Shown here in pieces: positions 21,990 to 32,000 of a stretch of DNA of 32,000 bases. Numbering within the stretch: the stretch's first letter is position 1; each line of letters begins with the position of its first letter. Position numbers and translations under genes: made by a program. The notes beneath the pieces were generated by a model. It saw nothing but the letters and a program-made list of their open reading frames with translations. It ran no database searches and was not told the DNA's origin. This DNA is from Nitrosopumilus oxyclinae (GTDB lineage Archaea > Thermoproteota > Nitrososphaeria > Nitrososphaerales > Nitrosopumilaceae), in the NCBI RefSeq assembly GCF_013407165.1, contig NZ_CP026994.1, forward strand, positions 864,187 through 896,186, read 5' to 3'.

Positions 21990-23342
21990 TTAAGAATCAT
22001 CCAAATATCGCAAATATTTCATGTCCAAAATATATGGTGTAACTCCGTAAATGGAGTCACCAATTAGAAGACCATCCTCATCAGTGAGAAAAATATATGT
22101 TTGATCAGAAAATTCTTCTCCAATTCCAAATACAAGTTTAATTTTAACACCTGAAATATCTAATAAAAATTCAGATTGAAAAAGATGAGTTGGAATCACT
22201 TCCGAGTTATCAGAATCACTAAAATAGGCCTGTAAATCTTCAGGAGCAATAATTTCAACAGAACCATCACCTTCTTCTAGAAATGCTTTAGAACCTAAAA
22301 GAAGGTCAGAGTTTTCTTGAGTGTAGATTATTGTTTTAATAGGTTTATCAGAAAATAGTATTCTAAAGTCATCCAATAGTTTTTTTGCAGATTCATATGA
22401 AGTTAAAGTGTCAATCACAATTATTCCAGAATCACCTTCAATTAACAAACTATTTGTGGAATCATATCCCACAGCAACCCAAATCCCATCCCTTAATTGA
22501 TATATTCTTGGAATATTTGAAGAGTATGAGAATGTAGATTCATTATCTCGTTCTTGTTCATCTCGTTCTTGTTCATCTCGTTCTTGTTCATCTCGTTCTT
22601 GTTCATCTCGTTCTTGTTCATCTCGTTCTTGTTCATCTCGTTCTTGTTCATCTCGTTCTTGTTCATCTCGTTCTTGTTCATCTCGTTCTTGTTCATCTCG
22701 TTCTTGTTCATCTCGTTCTTGTTCATCTCGTTCTTGTTCATCTCGTTCTTGTTCATCTCGTTCTTGTTCATCTCGTTCTTGTTCATCTCGTTCTTGTTCA
22801 TCTCGTTCTTGTTCATCTCGTTCTTGTTCATCTCGTTCTTGTTCATCTCGTTCTTGTTTACCCTCATCAATGTTTTTTTCATCATTTATAATTTCAGCCA
22901 GACCTAAACGCTCCCAACTAAGTGCAGTTGAAGGACTGGTACAAAATGTATCATGATGAATAAATCGATAAATTAGAGTATAGCCATCCCGGCATTCAGA
23001 ATCATCTTGAGAAATACGTTGTTTTTTAGGTGGTAATGGAGGTGAAGTAGGAATTTCAATTTCATCTTCAGCAACAATTTCATAAGATTTAGTCTCAGAT
23101 GGTTTAGGATATTCTGAAACGGTATTGGCCAAACCTAATTCTACCCATCGATCAGCAGTAGAAGGTATAACACAGACATATTGTTTAGAGGTAGTTCGAT
23201 AAACCATCACTTCCCCGTTAGGACACCCTGCCTGAATATCTTCTTGAGCCTCAGATTCTACGGATGCAAAAGAATGTGGAACTATTGCCGAGGAAAATAA
23301 AATAAACAATATTGGCAATAAAGCATACTTTCTTGTCTGCAT
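21990..23342 (-). CDS. Secreted protein: two Cys-pair modules, an (ERDEQ)n acidic repeat linker and a degenerate metallo-beta-lactamase-like C-terminal domain
   Basis: It has a signal peptide. A duplicated module is present (CPNGEVMVYR..YVCV.PSTADRWVELGLA and CRDGYTLIYR..TFCTSPSTALSWERLGLA), followed by 21 ERDEQ units. The C-terminal IVIDTL...KPIKTIIYTQENSDLLLG resembles an MBL N-terminal half in which the HxHxDH motif has been replaced. Confidence 0.75.
   Translation of the reverse strand: MQTRKYALLPILFILFSSAIVPHSFASVESEAQEDIQAGCPNGEVMVYRTTSKQYVCVIPSTADRWVELGLANTVSEYPKPSETKSYEIVAEDEIEIPTSPPLPPKKQRISQDDSECRDGYTLIYRFIHHDTFCTSPSTALSWERLGLAEIINDEKNIDEGKQERDEQERDEQERDEQERDEQERDEQERDEQERDEQERDEQERDEQERDEQERDEQERDEQERDEQERDEQERDEQERDEQERDEQERDEQERDEQERDEQERDNESTFSYSSNIPRIYQLRDGIWVAVGYDSTNSLLIEGDSGIIVIDTLTSYESAKKLLDDFRILFSDKPIKTIIYTQENSDLLLGSKAFLEEGDGSVEIIAPEDLQAYFSDSDNSEVIPTHLFQSEFLLDISGVKIKLVFGIGEEFSDQTYIFLTDEDGLLIGDSIYGVTPYILDMKYLRYLDDS
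22546..22860. repeat. Tandem repeat, 15-bp unit x 21 (tctcgttcttgttca)
   Basis: Counted directly: 20 identical units plus a last unit with one substitution. The repeat is in-frame and encodes ERDEQ on the minus strand. Confidence 0.97.
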
Positions 23343-23543: not shown

Positions 23544-24959
23544 TTGAAAATAAAAGAAACAATTTCAAAACTTAATGAAAGTATTCAAAATAACTATGGA
23601 GATCCAGGGAGAACGTTATACATTATTGAAAAATTAGAAAAAAACAGAAATTTACCAAAGTCAGATCTTGCATATATTGAAAGAATAGTCAAACTATGCA
23701 CTCTAGTTTTTGAGGAATCCAGTCCAGAGAAAACTGTTGAAAATATAGTATTAGAAGATCTGATAAAATGCTATCATTGTGATACTGAAATTAATTTAGA
23801 TGAGAAATCAATTAGAAAAAATAATTTTTGGTTTCACGATAAATGTTTTGAGGAATCCAGTCCAGAGAAAACTGTTGAAAATATAGTATTAGAAGATCTG
23901 ATAAAATGCTATCATTGTGATACTGAAATTAATTTAGATGAGAAATCAATTAGAAAAAATAATTTTTGGTTTCACGATAAATGTTTTGAAAAAATCCCAA
24001 TAATAAAAACAAATAATTTACAAAAAATAGAACCAATCAAAAAAGAAATAAAACAACCATCTAGAATTATTAAAACAAAGACAACCATACCTCAAATGGT
24101 TTTTTCAGGAGGGTTATTGGCATCCCTTGTAGGAACAACCTATTTTTGGGCAGGAGAAGTAATATCTCTAGTTGTAGGAGTGTGTGGGACTGCACTATAT
24201 TTTGCAACATTCAAGCCTCAAATTGTTTCTAAGAAAAGAAAAAATGCCGAATTTGTTAAAACAGGCATCCCAGGTTTTGATTCAACATTATCAGTGGGTC
24301 TCAAAAAAAATAGTTCTGTAGTTGTTTCAGGTCCTCCAGGAAGTGGAAAGACAACATTTGGTTTACAGTTTATCTATTCAGGAGCTAAAGAATTTGAAGA
24401 AAATGGCATATACATTTCACTATCACAAAGCATTGAAGAAATAAAAAATGATTGTAAAACATTTGGTTGGGATATTGATGAACTAGTATCCAAAGGGAAA
24501 ATCCTAATGATAGATTTGAGGCCATTTAAAATTAAAGATGAAGTAGTTGGACGAGATGATTCATTATACAGAGGAGAGCAGATTCCATTTGAACATTTAA
24601 CAAAATTTATCCTAAACAGCATAAAGAAGATCAAAGCAAAGAGAATTGTGATTGATTCAATCTCTATTCTGGGAATGCAATATTCAGACAAGTTTTACAT
24701 GAGGCAAGGTTTACAAGGTATGATTCAATCCCTTGAGAATTTTGGAGTAACTTCACTTTTAATTTCAGAATTTTCAGAAAAGGACGAAGTTCCACTCGAA
24801 TGGTTTGTCACATCAGGAATAATTCAATTGGACAATCAAATAATCAACAATGAAATGAAACGTACTATCAAAATAATAAAATTACGAGGTATTGAGCACA
24901 GTGAGCAAGTTCATTCAATAGAATTAGGAAGTAATGGACTGTATGTATACGAAGATTAG
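23544..24959 (+). CDS. Membrane-anchored KaiC/RecA-superfamily ATPase with an N-terminal GDxGR module and duplicated Zn-knuckle-like segments
   Basis: Walker A is VVSGPPGSGKTTFGLQF and Walker B is KRIVIDSISIL. It also has a KaiC-like GIPGFD motif, 1-2 TM helices (~aa 190-225), and an N-terminal YGDPGRTLYIIEKLEKNRNLPKSDLAYIERIV. TTG start. Confidence 0.75.
   Translation: MKIKETISKLNESIQNNYGDPGRTLYIIEKLEKNRNLPKSDLAYIERIVKLCTLVFEESSPEKTVENIVLEDLIKCYHCDTEINLDEKSIRKNNFWFHDKCFEESSPEKTVENIVLEDLIKCYHCDTEINLDEKSIRKNNFWFHDKCFEKIPIIKTNNLQKIEPIKKEIKQPSRIIKTKTTIPQMVFSGGLLASLVGTTYFWAGEVISLVVGVCGTALYFATFKPQIVSKKRKNAEFVKTGIPGFDSTLSVGLKKNSSVVVSGPPGSGKTTFGLQFIYSGAKEFEENGIYISLSQSIEEIKNDCKTFGWDIDELVSKGKILMIDLRPFKIKDEVVGRDDSLYRGEQIPFEHLTKFILNSIKKIKAKRIVIDSISILGMQYSDKFYMRQGLQGMIQSLENFGVTSLLISEFSEKDEVPLEWFVTSGIIQLDNQIINNEMKRTIKIIKLRGIEHSEQVHSIELGSNGLYVYED
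23712..23987. repeat. Perfect tandem duplication, 2 x 138 bp, inside the KaiC-like gene
   Basis: By direct comparison, 23712-23849 is identical to 23850-23987. Each copy encodes 46 aa (ESSPEKTVENIVLEDLIKCYHCDTEINLDEKSIRKNNFWFHDKCF). Confidence 0.95.
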
Positions 24960-25838: not shown

Positions 25839-25902
25839 TTTCGATTCAAAATTTAAGGAGAAAAAGACATTCTGAGTGGAATTTTAAAAATGGTTAAAAG
25901 AA

Positions 25903-25920
25903 TTATGCTTTATCAATAAA
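25903..25920. repeat. Left copy of the target-site duplication (ttatgctttatcaataaa)
   Basis: An identical 18-mer recurs at 30001-30018, where it forms the last 5 codons plus the stop of aEF-2. The boundary with the TIR is ambiguous by up to 3 nt because of an A/T run. Confidence 0.85.
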
Positions 25921-26094
25921 AAGGCAAAGCCCCCCTTTTGTTCCTGAATAGTTGGTAATGACTAGGATTATGATGGAAGATTGTTTGTTGGAAATAGCTT
26001 ATTTTCTAGTGTTGAATTTATGAAAATATGACAGACGAATATGCTGAACTACAAAAATTACGAGCACTTTGGAGTAAGGCAATCATTCAACGTG
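25920..26094. repeat. Left terminal inverted repeat (TIR-L)
   Basis: By base-by-base comparison, the reverse complement of 29826-30000 equals 25920-26094 except at 26090/29830. Confidence 0.9.
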
Positions 26095-26624
26095 ATTATA
26101 TTTTCATCCCGTTAGTTTTAGGTATAGTTTCAGTTTCATTATCACAATTACCCAACTTTCCTCCAGAATGGAGATTTGTATTTTTAGTCTTTGAAGGGAT
26201 TCTATTGACATTTGCAATGGCGTACTGGAGATATCTGACGAGAATGACAGACAAAGGAATTGTCGGTCTATATGGAAGAATGATGGAACTGGAAAAAAAG
26301 GATGGAATGGATACTCAAACTCAATACTATTACAGATATCTAAAAGATGAACACAGAGGCAAGATCAACAAGGAAGTAGGATTAGAAAAAGATAATGTGA
26401 ATTTTTCAAAATTCAGGGAAATGTCTACAAAGATCAAAGAAGGATATCATTATGATTTGCTATTAGGAATCTGGAATGATTTGGAATTTAATTCTGTAAA
26501 ACCACGAGGTCATGAAATTCATAATGCATTTGCAATATCACTAATTGTAGCATATTGGGTAACCTTTGCTATTTTTGGATTGGCATTTCCTGATGCGGTG
26601 CTCATAGAAACTGTTAATCCTTAA
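26028..26624 (+). CDS. Element-encoded membrane protein (3-4 TM), hypothetical
   Basis: 198 aa. The first 22 codons lie inside TIR-L. Its stop overlaps the cas1 start (TAATG). Confidence 0.65.
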   Translation: MTDEYAELQKLRALWSKAIIQRDYIFIPLVLGIVSVSLSQLPNFPPEWRFVFLVFEGILLTFAMAYWRYLTRMTDKGIVGLYGRMMELEKKDGMDTQTQYYYRYLKDEHRGKINKEVGLEKDNVNFSKFREMSTKIKEGYHYDLLLGIWNDLEFNSVKPRGHEIHNAFAISLIVAYWVTFAIFGLAFPDAVLIETVNP

Positions 26625-27643
26625 TGGCTCTTCAAGGTAAGAAAAACCACTACAACGTTAAATTCCTCAAAGGATACGGCCACTCCATTTCAGTCAAAAA
26701 TTCTAAAATTATCCTCAAATCCAATCATGACCCATTTTCTGAGCCTGAAATTGAAGAATGGGCAGTCAAAAATATGCCTTATGAGAAAATAGTAATGCAA
26801 GGAAAAGGGTACATCTCCACTGAAGCATTAACACAACTTTCTGAGAATAATCGAAATGTGATTTTACTAGACCATCACGGAAAGCCAGTTACTTTTTGCA
26901 ATGGCATGATGGATTCTTTAACTGGAACTAAATACAAAATGGCACAATATGACACGTTTCGAAATGAATCAAAATGTCAATATTTGACAAAACAGATTAT
27001 TTCTGCCAAAAAAGAATCTCAACTGAAACTACTCAAACTAATTGGCAGTCCTGTTGATACCCTATCTGATAAGGAAAATGTTTCAGCCATCACATACTGG
27101 AGGGAATTTGCTAAATTTATTCCTCCAAAATATGGATTCCAATCAAGAAATCAGTCTTCTATCAAAATATCCAAAAAAGATGCAACTGATATCATCAATG
27201 CTTTGTTAAATTATGGGTATTCTGTCTTGGCAGGGGAAATCTCAAAATTTGTTTGTGGATTTGGTCTAGACCCATACCTTGGATTTATGCATCGTACACA
27301 TTCAGGTTTTCAACCCCTTGTCTATGATATTATAGAACCATTCAGATGGATGGTAGATTATTCAGTGTACAAAATTGCAAATCACAAGGATTCAAGAAAA
27401 CAAATCAAACTCAAAGAGTATAGTTATTCAAAAGACGGAACCATAGTAATTGAATATGCTCTGATCAAGCGGTTCTTGGAGTTATTGGAAAGACAGTTTT
27501 CACAGGAGAGAAAGTATAATTCTAGGTATGGAAAGAAGACTGAATCTGGTTTGAAATCAGTTCAAGAGATTACAATTGGGAAGATTAAAGTTCAAAATTT
27601 AGTAGAATACTGTCTAGGGAAACAACTGAAAATAGAATTTTAA
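26624..27643 (+). CDS. cas1: Cas1-family integrase (casposase)
   Basis: 339 aa. The N-terminal beta domain reads ..EKIVMQGKGYISTEALTQLSENNRNVILLDHHGKPV. The C-terminal catalytic region is INALLNYGYSVLAGEI...GLDPYLGFMHRTHSGFQPLVYDIIEPFRWMVD, the Cas1 His and Glu/Asp motifs. Confidence 0.85.
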   Translation: MALQGKKNHYNVKFLKGYGHSISVKNSKIILKSNHDPFSEPEIEEWAVKNMPYEKIVMQGKGYISTEALTQLSENNRNVILLDHHGKPVTFCNGMMDSLTGTKYKMAQYDTFRNESKCQYLTKQIISAKKESQLKLLKLIGSPVDTLSDKENVSAITYWREFAKFIPPKYGFQSRNQSSIKISKKDATDIINALLNYGYSVLAGEISKFVCGFGLDPYLGFMHRTHSGFQPLVYDIIEPFRWMVDYSVYKIANHKDSRKQIKLKEYSYSKDGTIVIEYALIKRFLELLERQFSQERKYNSRYGKKTESGLKSVQEITIGKIKVQNLVEYCLGKQLKIEF

Positions 27644-27644
27644 A

Positions 27645-28322
27645 TTAAATTTTTGTATCGGCATTTATCTGAGTAAATACAACACCATATTCTTTGAGAG
27701 ATTTCTTTTCAGTAATTGTCGAATTCAATCGTTCAATTGCTATAATTACATTATCTTTAGTTTGATTCCATAACTTGTCATGCATGTGGATTTTACCATA
27801 CATAGGAATTAAACACATTTCAGACATTTCGATGTTCCCACCTACAAAATACGATATTTCTGGGGGTAAGTCTGATTCTATTATTTGTAGATCTTTTTTC
27901 ATTACATTAAAGTACAAAAAATTTGGCACTTCTTTTTGCTGTCCATCTAAATTTAGTGTTATCACATGAGTCATTTTGAATTTCTCATAAAATGGTACAT
28001 TTAATTTCTCAAATTCTTTTTTAGGCAAATTTTCTAAAACTTCAAAATAATTTTTTATTTTTTCTAAATCTACAACTAATTTCGTAGCATAAAAATTAAT
28101 TCTGTTATTTCGTGTTTTTTCTAAATTACCGAGAAATATTTTTTGTCTTTTTTCATTCTCTTTTGTAGTGCCATAAACTATAGTTGTTATGACAATACCT
28201 ACTGCAATTTCAGCTACCAATGTAACATTATTGTTAATTTCATCAACAGTGTTTAAGAAAACTGCCAATGCAGTCATAGTTATAATTGCTAAAATAACAT
28301 AAACATAGAATTTTTTTTCCAT
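27645..28322 (-). CDS. Element-encoded two-TM protein, hypothetical
   Basis: 225 aa with two N-terminal TM helices and then a ~160-aa soluble domain. No family recognised. Confidence 0.6.
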   Translation of the reverse strand: MEKKFYVYVILAIITMTALAVFLNTVDEINNNVTLVAEIAVGIVITTIVYGTTKENEKRQKIFLGNLEKTRNNRINFYATKLVVDLEKIKNYFEVLENLPKKEFEKLNVPFYEKFKMTHVITLNLDGQQKEVPNFLYFNVMKKDLQIIESDLPPEISYFVGGNIEMSEMCLIPMYGKIHMHDKLWNQTKDNVIIAIERLNSTITEKKSLKEYGVVFTQINADTKI

Positions 28323-28394
28323 TTATTATTAAGAAAAATAAATGAACTTAAGCATATTGGAAAAGCAGTAATAGTTCATAAAATAATACTCATC

Positions 28395-29123
28395 ATGGTA
28401 TGGACTTCATCTAAAAACGCAGATGCTAAAAACAGAATAAAACAATTTGATAAGGATAGATTGTTTGTTCCCAATAAGCAAGGTCAGACAATTCCAAAAA
28501 TCGAAAACATGAGATTAGGGGAAGCCAAAGAATTCAATCTTGCAGTAATGCATGTGGATATGAATAATTTTAAAGGATTAACAGGGTCATTGACAAATGA
28601 ACAAAAATTACGTTTTTTGAATATCTATTTGTCTGAATTTACTCATATGATTAGAGAATATGATGGATTTGTTGAAAAATATGTAGGGGATAGCATCACT
28701 GCATTATTTGGAGTTGGGAAGGATGATCAACAATCATGTTTAGATGCAGTACATTGTGGATTATCAATGTTAACTGAAGTATATTATGCAATGAATACAT
28801 ATCTTGATTCAATTGGTTTACCTAAATTTTCATGTTCCATAGGAATTGATTTTGGCTCAATTTGGGTGGCACGAGTAGGTGTTCAAGGAATGAATCAATT
28901 GACATTGGTTGGTAATGAAGTTAGTATTGCAAAACAAATAGAAGAATTTGCTGGAAATCATCAAATATTTGTAGGAGGTGGAGCATATCTAAATTTGAAT
29001 AAACATGAACAAGCAATATGTAAAATACAAAATCAGAGAAGTGATTTTAACTGGACTTGGTTTCAAGGGAAAAAATATCCCTTCTATCACTATACTGCCC
29101 ATTGGGAAGGTTTTGATTTATGA
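28395..29123 (+). CDS. Class III nucleotidyl cyclase domain protein (PycC-like)
   Basis: AVMHVDMNNFKGLT ... FVEKYVGDSITALFGV ... CSIGIDFGSIWVARVG..NQLTLVGNEVSIAKQIEEFA matches the adenylate/guanylate cyclase catalytic-domain pattern, including both metal-binding Asp positions. Confidence 0.75.
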   Translation: MVWTSSKNADAKNRIKQFDKDRLFVPNKQGQTIPKIENMRLGEAKEFNLAVMHVDMNNFKGLTGSLTNEQKLRFLNIYLSEFTHMIREYDGFVEKYVGDSITALFGVGKDDQQSCLDAVHCGLSMLTEVYYAMNTYLDSIGLPKFSCSIGIDFGSIWVARVGVQGMNQLTLVGNEVSIAKQIEEFAGNHQIFVGGGAYLNLNKHEQAICKIQNQRSDFNWTWFQGKKYPFYHYTAHWEGFDL

Positions 29124-29617
29124 GCGATAATGAGAAAATTGCTTTTGCAAGAGATGCTTTAGAGCACAACAATAGCATAATCAATCTCATTGACACCAAG
29201 TCAGGTTTGGTTTTGGGTGCCTCTGGAATTATTTTGGGTTTGCTTACATTTTTTGAACGTGATGGATTAGGCTATGCAATATTTCCTTTATTTGTCACAA
29301 TGGGATTATTGTTAGGGACTATCATGTTTTCATTTTTCACCATTTTCCCACGAATTACAAAAAAATTCAAAGGGGAAACGGCAATTTTCTATCCTGCAAT
29401 AACAAAATTATCCATGAGTGAATTTGAAGAAAAATTGAAAAAATACTCTACAGAAGATATTCTCAAAGATTATGCTAATAACATACATAGTTTAGCAAAA
29501 GTACAGGAAAGAAAATTCGAGGTTCTGCGTATTTCAATGGGATTTATGATTGCATCTTCTATTTCATTAGTGATTACTTTAATTTGTTATTTCCAAAATC
29601 AACCCATTTCACAATAA
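29120..29617 (+). CDS. Small 3-TM protein resembling the Pycsar TM effector family (DUF5706-like)
   Basis: 165 aa. An N-terminal helix ends in LIDTKSG (compare the aDtKA motif), followed by two TM helices, a ~55-aa soluble segment and a final TM helix. Its start overlaps the cyclase stop (ATGA). Confidence 0.55.
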   Translation: MSDNEKIAFARDALEHNNSIINLIDTKSGLVLGASGIILGLLTFFERDGLGYAIFPLFVTMGLLLGTIMFSFFTIFPRITKKFKGETAIFYPAITKLSMSEFEEKLKKYSTEDILKDYANNIHSLAKVQERKFEVLRISMGFMIASSISLVITLICYFQNQPISQ

Positions 29618-29892
29618 GGACATTCAACTTCTTCTTTGTGTGATTTTACCAATCCTACAAACATCTCTAAACATTCTGTACAAACATACTTGATTCTTTT
29701 CCTTTTCTGAGTCTTGTAATACATTGCTTGTAATGTATTCACTCGCTGAGTTTTGAAATTCCCTTCCTCATCATAGTAATAGATGTGCCATTTCTTCTTT
29801 GTAGATTTTTTATGCTTGTGATTTCCACGATGAATGATTGCCTTACTCCAAAGTGCTCGTAATTTTTGTAGTTCAGCATATTCGTCTGTCAT
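29599..29892 (-). CDS. Element-encoded basic Zn-ribbon protein
   Basis: 97 aa. The first 20 residues (codons lying in TIR-R) are identical to those of 26028-26624. It is K/R/H-rich, with C-terminal CTEC...CPYC. Confidence 0.55.
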   Translation of the reverse strand: MTDEYAELQKLRALWSKAIIHRGNHKHKKSTKKKWHIYYYDEEGNFKTQRVNTLQAMYYKTQKRKRIKYVCTECLEMFVGLVKSHKEEVECPYCEMG

Positions 29893-30000
29893 ATTTTCAT
29901 AAATTCAACACTAGAAAATAAGCTATTTCCAACAAACAATCTTCCATCATAATCCTAGTCATTACCAACTATTCAGGAACAAAAGGGGGGCTTTGCCTTT
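29826..30000. repeat. Right terminal inverted repeat (TIR-R)
   Basis: See TIR-L. The outer terminus is ggggggctttgccttt. Confidence 0.9.
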
Positions 30001-30018
30001 TTATGCTTTATCAATAAA
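30001..30018. repeat. Right copy of the target-site duplication, which is also the native 3' end of the aEF-2 gene
   Basis: ttatgctttatcaataaa is the reverse complement of F-I-D-K-A-stop. Confidence 0.85.
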
Positions 30019-32000
30019 TTCGTTAACACCTGGTGGTTCTGGTGCCAATCCCTTTCTCTTTCTAATGTCAGCTACTGCTGCACCTAACATGGATTTTGGA
30101 ACTTCAGTCCATGCCTTAAATGAAGTATTCCAGGTTGCACGACCTGCAGTTTGTCCTCTCATTGCTTCAGATAGTGTAAATGTTTCAGAAGCTGGAATCT
30201 CACCAATAACAATGCTTGATGCGCCTTTTTGGCTCATGTCAAGTACTTTACCTCGTTTACCAGAAAGAATAGTTGCAACGTTACCAACCAAATCAGTTGG
30301 GACACGAACTTCAATTGCCAGTGTTGGCTCTAATACTGCAGTTCCTGCAGTGAGCAATGCACCCATACATGCACGTCTTGATGCAGGTCCTAATTGAGAC
30401 AAACCTCTGTGTGCCGTATCCTCGTGAGGTACAAAGTGAGTAAAGATGAATTTACAATCCCTCATCTGTTCTTTACAGAGAGGTCCCTCTTTCATTACTT
30501 CTTCAAATCCTGAATTAATAGAATCAGTTGATTCTTGTACAAACTGAACACCTTTTGTTCCGTTAATCAAAACATTACCACGTGAATCAAATTTCATAAC
30601 CCTCTTGATTGTATCTGTATCCCATCCATTCTCTTTTAGTAAATCAGAAACTGCCTTCTTGTCTTTGAGGTCTGAAATTTCACCGGTTCTTAGCATGTGG
30701 GCAATTTTTGGTTCTAATGGTTCCACTTTCATGAAAATCTTGTTGTGTCTGTTTGGTGATTTTGCCATAATTGGTTCACAACCACCCTTTACAGTTTCTC
30801 TATAGTTAATCAAAGGCTCAGATGTTATAATCTCACATTTTGCATCCTGAATTCTATGTACTGCAACATCCAAATGTAATACACCCATCCCTGCAACAAT
30901 TGTTTCGCCAGACTCCTCATCAATTTTTACAACTAAATTTGGATCCTCAATTGTTAGTTGTCTTAAAATGTCTACGAGTTTAGGTAAATCTTTAGGATGT
31001 TTTGGTTCAATTGCAATTTGAACAACAGGTTCTGAAACGTATTTCACACCCTCAAACATTGGAATATCTTTAATTGATGATAGAGTGTTTCCGGCTCTAC
31101 ATTCAGTCAGTCCCAGTAAAGCTGGAATATTACCTGCTCCCAATTCACCAACTTGTTCTCTTTGGTTACCCATAAAGAAATTGACTGATTGAACTCTGCC
31201 TTCTCTTTTCTCATCTATAATGTGTAAAGTTTGACCGTCTTTGATGGTACCTGAAAATAATCTTCCAATTGCAACAGGACCGGCTGCTGGATCTAGGACC
31301 ATGTTTACAACCATCATAATTGTTGGACCATCATCACTACCTGCAAGCAAAGCTTTACCAACATCAGATTCTAAATCACCTTTCCAAATTTGTGGGATTC
31401 TATACTTGATTGCATCATGTGGTGCTGGATGATGTTTAACTACCATTCCAAGTACAGCATCAGCTAATGGTGCTTTCTCAATAAGTTCATCAAGTTTTTC
31501 TTCAGTATATGCATCAATTACATCTTTGAATGTTATTCCTCTTTCTTTCATTAAATCAGTGTTAATTGCCCATCTATCTTTGGCTGAACCAAATGTAACA
31601 CTTGCATCTTGAATAGATACTTTCCATTTCTCTTTGTATTCTGGTTCTGCATATGTGTCAACTAGAGTATTGAAATTTGAAACTACTTCAGCTAATTGTG
31701 CTTGCATTTTTTCTGGAGTTAATCTTAGTTCTTTGATGAGTCTATCCACTTTGTTGATAAACAAAACAGGTTTTACTCTCTCTTCAAGGGCCATTCTAGT
31801 TACAGTCTCTGTTTGTGTCATGATACCTTCTACTGCATCACAAACTACAACTGCACCATCAATTGCTCTAAGACTTCGAATAACCCTTCCACTAAAGTCG
31901 ACGTGGCCTGGGGTATCAATCATGTTAATTACATATTCTTGACCTTTTTGGGCAAAGAGTAAGGTAACGTTTGCTTGGTAAATTGTAATTCCTCTTTCTT
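30001..32000 (-). CDS. fusA: Translation elongation factor aEF-2 (N-terminus lies beyond the window edge)
   Basis: It has the G-domain motif DTPGHVDF, NKVDR, and the diphthamide-site motif HEDTAHRG. The frame stays open upstream of the first Met to position 32000. Confidence 0.95.
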   Translation of the reverse strand, partial: ERGITIYQANVTLLFAQKGQEYVINMIDTPGHVDFSGRVIRSLRAIDGAVVVCDAVEGIMTQTETVTRMALEERVKPVLFINKVDRLIKELRLTPEKMQAQLAEVVSNFNTLVDTYAEPEYKEKWKVSIQDASVTFGSAKDRWAINTDLMKERGITFKDVIDAYTEEKLDELIEKAPLADAVLGMVVKHHPAPHDAIKYRIPQIWKGDLESDVGKALLAGSDDGPTIMMVVNMVLDPAAGPVAIGRLFSGTIKDGQTLHIIDEKREGRVQSVNFFMGNQREQVGELGAGNIPALLGLTECRAGNTLSSIKDIPMFEGVKYVSEPVVQIAIEPKHPKDLPKLVDILRQLTIEDPNLVVKIDEESGETIVAGMGVLHLDVAVHRIQDAKCEIITSEPLINYRETVKGGCEPIMAKSPNRHNKIFMKVEPLEPKIAHMLRTGEISDLKDKKAVSDLLKENGWDTDTIKRVMKFDSRGNVLINGTKGVQFVQESTDSINSGFEEVMKEGPLCKEQMRDCKFIFTHFVPHEDTAHRGLSQLGPASRRACMGALLTAGTAVLEPTLAIEVRVPTDLVGNVATILSGKRGKVLDMSQKGASSIVIGEIPASETFTLSEAMRGQTAGRATWNTSFKAWTEVPKSMLGAAVADIRKRKGLAPEPPGVNEFIDKA

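Follow-up and report, generated by a model that had tools for sequence, protein, structure and literature searches.

The cyclase–effector pair and the element that holds it

The window considered here is a 32,000-nt stretch of Nitrosopumilus oxyclinae DNA (contig NZ_CP026994.1, positions 864,187 to 896,186 of the forward strand). Positions 25918–30002 of this window form an element of 4,085 bp with six open reading frames (ORFs), all of them full length relative to their homologues: ORF198 (+), a Cas1 homologue (+), ORF225 (−), a nucleotide cyclase of the PycC type (+), a small membrane protein of the PycTM type (+) and ORF97 (−). An earlier note on this DNA, made from the letters alone, had taken the cyclase and the membrane protein for a Pycsar-like pair carried as cargo by a Cas1 transposon, or casposon. 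Our analysis leads to a closely related view, namely that the two genes probably make up a Pycsar-type defence operon that is the cargo of a family 1 casposon derivative. The identity of the element's parts is secure, and the mechanism would follow from the families to which the two proteins belong.

The genes of the pair lie exactly as that note described them, as two ORFs joined by an ATGA start/stop overlap at 29120–29123. The overlap is read directly in the sequence, and through it the effector gene is predicted to be translationally coupled to the cyclase gene. The profile searches that the note proposed place both products in families. The cyclase is matched by PF00211 at E = 1.1e-11 and by 12 PADLOC models of PycC, the best of which (PDLC02367, E = 1.2e-28) aligns over profile positions 21–224 of 226 (204 covered); judged by these scores, the protein fits the curated PycC profiles far better than the generic PF00211 (1e-28 versus 1e-11). 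The effector matches PF18967 (PycTM) at E = 3e-14 and 53.7 bits, well above the curated Pfam gathering cut-off of 27.2, and it matches the PADLOC PycTM model PDLC02364 at E = 2.3e-26, which bears out the likeness to DUF5706/PycTM that had been suggested. The string NLIDTKSGLVLG is present in the effector protein, and a Kyte-Doolittle scan finds the three hydrophobic segments of the proposed three-transmembrane (TM) topology at about residues 27–46, 52–77 and 137–159.

The cyclase had also been described as a stand-alone class III domain that keeps both metal-binding aspartates, and this description holds. The two residues, D55 in HVDM and D99 in VGDS, are each invariant in an alignment of 40 homologues; they are among 30 invariant columns in that alignment, which also reveals a conserved N-terminal motif, NRxxQxDxxR. 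An exact look-up of the cyclase in a contig index gave no match; the homologue search recovered an identical protein. An AF2 model of the protein (pLDDT 85.6) has, besides the class III core, a helix at the N-terminus and a beta element at the C-terminus, and Foldseek matches it to class III cyclases at E = 1e-16. The helix spans residues 5–20 and is a prediction only (pLDDT 77–81); an N-terminal helix extension has been described as a hallmark of PycC (PMC11224242).

The boundaries of the element are a target-site duplication (TSD) of 13 bp and terminal inverted repeats (TIRs) of about 177 nt, with insertion at the stop codon of the aEF-2 gene (Table 1). A 202-nt inverted repeat pairs 25893–26094 with 29826–30027, and its near-perfect core (25916–26094 against 29826–30004) has one mismatch in 179 positions. 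The TIR tips bear AAAGGCAAAGCCCCCCTTTTGTTCC, which occurs nowhere else in the window, and the left TIR contains the CCCCCCTTTT motif common to the ends of other family 1 casposons, with similar termini in loci L067, L144 and L151. An exact direct repeat, TGCTTTATCAATAAA, stands at 25906–25920 and again at 30004–30018. The repeat at the two ends is exact over 13–18 bp; the chance expectation for a 15-mer with up to two mismatches is 0.54 matches, and here two exact copies sit at the TIR tips.

The frame of the 13-bp TSD was set by analogy with the experimentally defined TSD of the N. koreensis AR1 casposon, ATTGATAAAGAGT (PMC8464041). The target of the AR1 casposase consists of a TTT leader, this 13-bp TSD and an ATAA ruler (PMC8464041). 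In N. oxyclinae, the aEF-2 strand reads TTT followed by ATTGATAAAGCAT at the junction, in agreement with the AR1 leader, TSD and ruler, and ATTGATAAAGCAT comprises the last aEF-2 codons (…FIDKA-stop) with the first base of the stop codon. The TAA stop of aEF-2 is rebuilt from this one TSD base and the AA supplied by the last two bases of the right TIR, and in an empty site the left flank would restore TAA. The aEF-2 frame is open to the end of the window and is 92–94% identical to the EF-2 sequences that adjoin casposons in L067 and L104. Thaumarchaeal family 1 casposons are known to insert into ef-2 at its 3' end (PMC4046053, PMC6563490). We also considered whether another casposon might lie in tandem on the left side of the element, as is the case with NitNF5 and in L067/L073, and rejected this: neither the TSD nor the TIR motif occurs again in the window, and the genes on that side look chromosomal.

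The Cas1 homologue is identical to a protein on record for N. oxyclinae, and 940 proteins matched it at E<=1e-10 in a homologue search. Its identity is 79% with the biochemically characterised casposase of N. koreensis AR1 and 82% with the casposases of N. sediminis AR2 and N. cobalaminigenes. Its length of 339 residues suits the family 1 clade, whose members are about 340 residues long and have no C-terminal helix-turn-helix. Residues E151, H223, D235 and E238 are invariant in the family, and the motifs GFMH and YDIIEPFR align with GFLH and YDLQEPFR of PDB 6OPM, which was deposited as a Cas1 endonuclease. By sequence, then, the protein is a family 1 casposase with conserved catalytic motifs.

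The other three genes of the element are less familiar, and PHROGs gave nothing informative for any of them. ORF198 has no Pfam, PADLOC or PHROG match; its family comprises 59 representative clusters that share the N-terminus DEYxELQxLRxLW, and further family motifs are YWR…D..IV..Y.RMLELEK and SV..RGH. In L151 an ORF198 homologue is likewise the first gene after a terminus of the CCCCCCTTTT type, ahead of a Cas1 remnant. The sole homologue of ORF225 is P0177 (46% identity), which occupies the same place opposite Cas1 in casposon L150. ORF97 has homologues in 16 casposon loci.

Table 1. Features of the element and its integration site, with positions in the 32,000-nt window.
Feature	Position	Strand	Remarks
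Left TSD, ATGCTTTATCAAT	25905-25917	+	Reverse complement of ATTGATAAAGCAT
Left TIR, ~177 nt	25918-26094	+	Reaches into the first 22 codons of ORF198
ORF198, membrane protein	26028-26624	+	First gene after the TIR; stop overlaps Cas1 start
Family 1 casposase (Cas1 homologue)	26624-27643	+	339 aa; PF01867, E = 2e-40
ORF225, two N-terminal TM helices	27645-28322	-	Casposon cargo, convergent with Cas1
PycC-type class III nucleotide cyclase	28395-29123	+	242 aa; PF00211 and PADLOC PycC matches
PycTM-type membrane effector	29120-29617	+	165 aa; PF18967 and PADLOC PycTM; three hydrophobic segments
ORF97, conserved family 1 casposon zinc-ribbon protein	29599-29892	-	Chimeric here
Right TIR	29826-30002	-	Copy of left end, one mismatch
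Right TSD, ATGCTTTATCAAT	30003-30015	+	Within the 3' end of aEF-2
aEF-2 gene, integration target	30001-32000	-	EF-G/EF-2 Pfam domains; 5' part beyond the window

The cargo slot and recurrence of the pair

Relatives of the element were collected by a metagenome scan with an alignment of family 1 Cas1 proteins, which gave 80 loci. A scan of genome contigs with a single Cas1 protein used patterns that were too strict and returned 3 family 1 loci among 58, most of the rest being bacterial CRISPR Cas1. The Cas1 alignment found no relative among viral contigs, and in that scan there was no sign of these elements being binned as viruses. Family 1 loci with 1.2 kb or more of sequence downstream of Cas1 number 43. 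Of the 192 ORFs in these downstream regions, 89 are singletons, and the conserved clusters are the ORF97 gene, three small genes and the polymerase gene pPolB. A scan of 65 variable ORFs, which also caught some host genes where Cas1 sits at the element edge, identified type IIG and type II restriction-modification (RM), type IV Mrr, HEPN/AbiV, DUF4238 and radical SAM proteins. The cyclase–effector pair would occupy this variable cargo slot, with cas1 on one side and the conserved ORF97 gene on the other, and since RM, Mrr and AbiV genes fill the slot elsewhere, Pycsar is one among many defence-type loads in a cargo hotspot.

The element resembles the described family 1 casposons of Nitrosopumilus (NitAR1-C1, NitAR2-C1 and NitNF5-C1/C2; Krupovic et al. 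2014, 2019) in its casposase, which is 77–82% identical to theirs, in its place of insertion, the 3' end of aEF-2, and its 13-bp TSD, in the CCCCCCTTTT motif of its TIR, in the conserved ORF97 gene and in having element-specific cargo next to cas1. Its cargo differs in kind. Published casposon cargo includes OLD, HEPN, NERD, HNH and Cas4 nucleases, in a survey that also reports the ef-2 target (PMC6563490) and mentions neither N. oxyclinae nor any cyclase, whereas the element in N. oxyclinae carries a cyclic-nucleotide signalling system. A small conserved core with a variable slot for defence genes is also the plan of pipolins (PMC11551731) and other "guns for hire" defence elements, although the integrase here is a Cas1 homologue. 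By PADLOC annotation, casposons give a smaller share of their genes to defence than pipolins do (PMC11551731).

PycC and PycTM genes are present in three other family 1 casposon sequences (L073, L144 and L145) and stand directly after Cas1 in two of them. In L073, a diverged pair (PycC 44% and PycTM 41.5% identical in tblastn) lies directly after Cas1 and ahead of an ORF97 homologue, and TIRs of 76 nt enclose Cas1, PycC, PycTM, the ORF97 homologue and pPolB. The other two sequences were reached through the contigs of PycC homologues. L144 is a 7,135-bp contig with 45-nt TIRs at its very ends and contains Cas1, PycC, PycTM and a PF03175 pPolB. In L145 the three small genes and pPolB are accompanied by two cyclases and two PycTM-like genes, with Cas1 off the contig.

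Each of these loci has peculiarities of its own. L067 (9227–16405) and L073 (8759–16946) belong to one contig, Ga0224506_10000056, on which two different family 1 casposons are inserted in tandem at a single ef-2 gene, with 13 bp between them and with opposite orientations; Pycsar is in the distal one only, and other genes follow the Cas1 of the proximal one. L144 (1–7135) begins and ends exactly at its TIRs (CCCCCGTTTTGTGCG…) and could be an excised linear casposon or a mere assembly break. L145 (349–2987) has a nested, inverted layout of PycTM-like (−), PycC (+), PycTM (+) and cyclase (−) genes, as if one pair had been inserted into another.

The two-gene organisation on which the earlier note based its Pycsar assignment recurs elsewhere. 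In 11 of the 12 other loci read, the homologous cyclase gene is followed directly by a PycTM gene; the exception is L148, where cyclase P0012 has no adjacent PycTM and a second cyclase–PycTM pair lies 3 kb away. Seven contexts are without Cas1 (L001–L003, which are copies of one locus, L004, L005, L146, L147, L148 and L149) and are thaumarchaeal islands with GmrSD, RM, TIR-domain and E1/E2-like genes and transposases. The pair is thus placed in variable defence islands and in casposons L073, L144 and L145, and not at the conserved core chromosomal locus that the note had named as evidence to the contrary. In a rough neighbour-joining tree, which has no support values, cyclases carried by casposons are interleaved with the island copies at no fewer than three places, and this pattern suggests repeated exchange of the pair between casposons and islands. 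One island, L147 (8001–11384), has a different effector architecture, larger than the 165-residue form: its PycC homologue is followed by a 483-residue protein with a PycTM domain and then by a TIR-domain gene, with E1/E2-like and more TIR-domain genes nearby.

These surroundings also bear on what the pair is for. It could serve the casposon in the main, by acting as a module for addiction or stabilisation or by fighting off viruses and mobile elements that compete with it, and cells that retain the element would then be at an advantage. The pair is directly beside cas1 in three elements, the PolB-less element in N. oxyclinae (see below) is wholly dependent on chromosomal retention, and RM, Mrr and AbiV genes occur in the same slot of other casposons. 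Genes of these types are often called selfish stabilisers. We consider such a primary role unlikely, given that no antitoxin-like partner or regulator is present, that the same pair is found in ordinary defence islands without Cas1 and that Pycsar is not known as an addiction module. Service to the casposon would, moreover, overlap with host defence and not be exclusive of it.

Both archaeal Pycsar and the presence of defence-type genes on casposons have been documented before (PMC10249747, PMC11291487, PMC6563490), and the novelty here is therefore narrower than the first reading of the locus implied. Pycsar occurs in bacteria and some archaea (PMC10249747), with Asgard genomes reported to be enriched in it (PMC11291487), and in Nitrosarchaeum haohaiensis a family 1 Cas1 and a "pycsar_unknown" match have been recorded separately and unlinked (PMC12097351). 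Neither an association of Pycsar with casposons nor a natural PolB-less mini-casposon was found in the literature searched. Both appear to be unreported, and conceptually they extend known themes. By family, the pair widens casposon cargo from the nucleases that were mainly reported earlier to cyclic-nucleotide abortive-infection systems, and its recurrence in several independent family 1 elements offers a concrete route by which such defences could be moved among marine ammonia-oxidising archaea.

A proposed Pycsar-type defence and its alternatives

Compared with characterised Pycsar systems (structures 7R65, 8JSF and 6YII), the pair in N. oxyclinae has the same two-gene operon, a stand-alone class III cyclase with both metal-binding aspartates, a small PF18967 effector and, as a prediction, the N-terminal helix on the cyclase. 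Pycsar systems, too, are found in defence islands and mobile elements. The differences are that the cyclase belongs to a thaumarchaeal clade with about 15–18% identity to the solved PycC proteins in structural alignment, that its residues H53, K95, V97 and T170 fit the specificity set of no characterised clade and that the host is an archaeon, such that the targets would be archaeal viruses.

The mechanism that we propose is modelled on Pycsar as reported by Tal et al. 2021 and summarised in PMC11224242 and PMC10249747. Infection by a virus would switch on a homodimer of the cyclase, which would then produce a 3',5'-cyclic mononucleotide; cUMP and cCMP are the family precedent, and the base is not predictable here. 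This cyclic mononucleotide would activate the three-TM effector, and the activated effector would damage the membrane, with death or arrest of the infected cell ahead of virus release. Both the cCMP or cUMP product and the abortive infection named in the earlier note we infer from family membership. The setting of the pair in defence islands and mobile elements is supportive context only for an antiviral role. As a cultured organism, N. oxyclinae would be a suitable host for the study of archaeal Pycsar.

The structural comparison with PycC that had been proposed gave a divided answer. In favour of the assignment, the PycC structures 8JSF and 7R65 align with the cyclase model over 242–249 columns, compared with about 190–208 for solved adenylate and guanylate cyclases (AC/GC), and 8JSF reaches a Foldseek TMq of 0.72–0.73. 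Several observations count on the other side. The lowest Foldseek E-values belong to Cya2, CyaC and CyaB, over about 195–200 columns. By sequence as well, the nearest solved proteins are the adenylate/guanylate cyclases Cya2, CyaB and CyaC (E = 1e-17 to 1e-9), and BcPycC (7R65, 3.5e-6) and EaPycC (8JSF, 1.6e-4) rank behind them. The single-sequence structure prediction of the effector has a pLDDT of 58.8, too low for a structure search. Substrate-specificity positions, mapped onto the cyclase solely by offset from the metal-binding aspartates, are H53, K95, V97, S100 and T102, together with T170. Under this mapping, H53/K95/V97/T170 equals none of the published pyrimidine-selecting sets (Y50/D94/R97 in BcPycC, F60/K104/F109 in AnPycC and F100/R142/Q144 in EaPycC; PMC11224242), sets that also differ from one another, and K95 with T170 forms an adenine-type pair of the canonical kind. 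Most of the 40 aligned members have Ser177 and Lys180 in place of the usual transition-state Asn and Arg. Finally, Pycsar is present in 1 of the 43 family 1 loci of the unbiased JGI/GTDB sample that have at least 1.2 kb downstream of Cas1, and its association with casposons is recurrent but rare.

An attempt to name the nucleotide product from the active-site residues was dropped, as the published sets vary by clade and the mapping is by offset only. It is conceivable, though doubtful, that the thaumarchaeal PycC proteins of this clade, in which the His53/Lys95/Thr170 pocket is invariant, signal with a nucleotide other than those of the characterised Pycsar clades.

The adenine-type pair and the housekeeping-type AC/GC enzymes that head the list of solved structures would also suit an ordinary cAMP or cGMP signalling enzyme that has a membrane partner and no immune role. 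Several points speak against this. Only 55 proteins matched the cyclase at E<=1e-5 in a word-index search of a 5.8-billion-sequence database, and the contexts read are all mobile elements or defence islands (GmrSD, RM, TIR-domain genes, transposases, casposons) and never a conserved core locus. The partner belongs to PF18967, and the cyclase itself scores at 1e-28 with PADLOC PycC versus 1e-11 with PF00211. Taken with these points, ordinary signalling seems to us highly improbable, and a Pycsar-type operon remains the reading that we prefer.

A casposon derivative without a polymerase

The vehicle proposed in the earlier note was a Cas1 transposon, and this part of the proposal stands with respect to Cas1, the TIRs and the TSD at aEF-2 and needs revision with respect to completeness. 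A tblastn search with two casposon pPolB proteins gave no match in the window at E<=1e-3, whereas 21–23 other loci were matched, and no Pfam PolB domain was found among the window ORFs scanned. Family 1 casposons have been defined in print by the genes that they have in common, namely cas1, pPolB and three small genes. Given this definition and the absence of pPolB, the element is classed as a PolB-less deletion derivative, a "mini-casposon," and not as a complete self-synthesising casposon. Unlike the described Nitrosopumilus family 1 casposons, it has neither pPolB nor the three small conserved genes. It measures 4.1 kb, compared with 7.1–8.2 kb in the three complete relatives that could be delimited (L067, L073 and L144), and its TIRs of about 177 nt compare with 45–76 nt in complete relatives, its right arm being a copy of the left end.

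L150, which was found through the ORF225 homologue, indicates what a longer form of the element might look like. It is collinear with the window, with nucleotide identities of 66–68% for Cas1 and ORF225 and 77% for ORF97. The stretch that measures 1,456 bp in the window and includes the Pycsar pair is represented by about 590 bp in L150. Past ORF97, L150 continues into a 167-residue gene, the three small genes and pPolB, whereas the window passes at once into the TIR.

The ORF97 protein of the window records how the right end may have arisen. In an alignment of the family, the N-terminus MKYVVSVSKTYIHRG is swapped for MTDEYAELQKLRALWSKAIIHRG in the window copy, and the family start MKYVVSVS is gone. 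The first 15 residues of this copy (MTDEYAELQKLRALW) are instead the native N-terminus of ORF198 (26028–26094), copied with the left TIR and fused in frame; the junction falls in a stretch common to both proteins, SKAIIHR, at a similarity patch SKxxIxR. As this N-terminus is native to the left end and ORF97 is the chimera, the right arm is best explained as an inverted copy of the left 177 bp, which would also account for a TIR longer than the 45–76 nt of relatives. We propose that a full-length casposon lost everything beyond ORF97 (the three small genes and pPolB), leaving the 4.1-kb element, and that the right end was regenerated by copying the left 177 bp in inverted form, with the short similarity patch as the point of junction to ORF97. 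The route could have been template switching, repair at the end of a linear copy that had been truncated, or a deletion inside a long TIR that already existed. That the long TIR is ancestral is less likely, as those of relatives are 45–76 nt and the right arm holds the 5' end of ORF198 fused to ORF97.

Loss of pPolB and a chimeric ORF97 might also be the marks of a decaying, immobile casposon relic, in which the pair would be non-functional or a passenger on the way to loss. Decay of this kind has parallels in L077, where a decayed Cas1 remnant lies beside a homologue of a host flank gene, and in L151, where a Cas1 remnant follows a TIR and an ORF198 homologue. The element itself does not have the look of decay. 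Its six ORFs are of full length, the TIR arms differ at 1 of 179 positions, the TSD is perfect, the casposase motifs are intact and the ORF97 fusion is in frame. A relic is, in our judgement, quite unlikely.

With Cas1, the TIRs and the TSD intact, the element may still be integrated by its own casposase, to judge from the sequence, and for any replication it would depend on the host or on a pPolB provided in trans. As ORF97 is chimeric and pPolB is absent, the element may instead no longer move. Artificial mini-casposons provide a point of comparison, as the AR1 casposase alone integrates DNA of about 1–4 kb with TIR-derived ends site-specifically into a leader-TSD target (PMC8464041). The element in N. 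oxyclinae is comparable to these constructs in size and has the same target. They are laboratory constructs, whereas it is a natural element that encodes its own casposase and is known from sequence alone. A natural casposon with no polymerase and with Cas1, perfect ends and a perfect target duplication makes lone-casposase mobility directly testable, with an enzyme family that already works in vitro.

A bolder reading, which we regard as doubtful although conceivable, is that the element of 4.1 kb is an active Cas1 transposon, free of a polymerase, that chiefly carries an innate immune module, that is, a natural defence cassette moved by the casposase alone. If that were true, the union of Cas1, repeat-like ends and an innate-immunity operon in one unit would make it a living counterpart of an intermediate that has been proposed in the origin of CRISPR adaptation, in which a casposon settled beside an innate defence locus.

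Among further observations on the loci, L077 (760–3745) has a Cas1 gene followed by a 77-nt duplicate of its own 3' end and no pPolB, and a homologue of ORF143, a flank gene of the window, lies 1.5 kb downstream; the locus has the appearance of a casposon in decay next to that same host flank gene in another genome. Outside the element, the window contains at 22470–22934 about 25 nearly perfect head-to-tail copies of a 15-nt unit, inside an ORF at 21990–23342 (−) that encodes 450 residues with a weak metallo-beta-lactamase match; a similar 15-nt array is present in L077 (5018–5257). An exact tandem duplication of 138 nt (46 codons) at 23708–23983 falls within the N-terminal part of a KaiC-like ATPase gene at 23544–24959.

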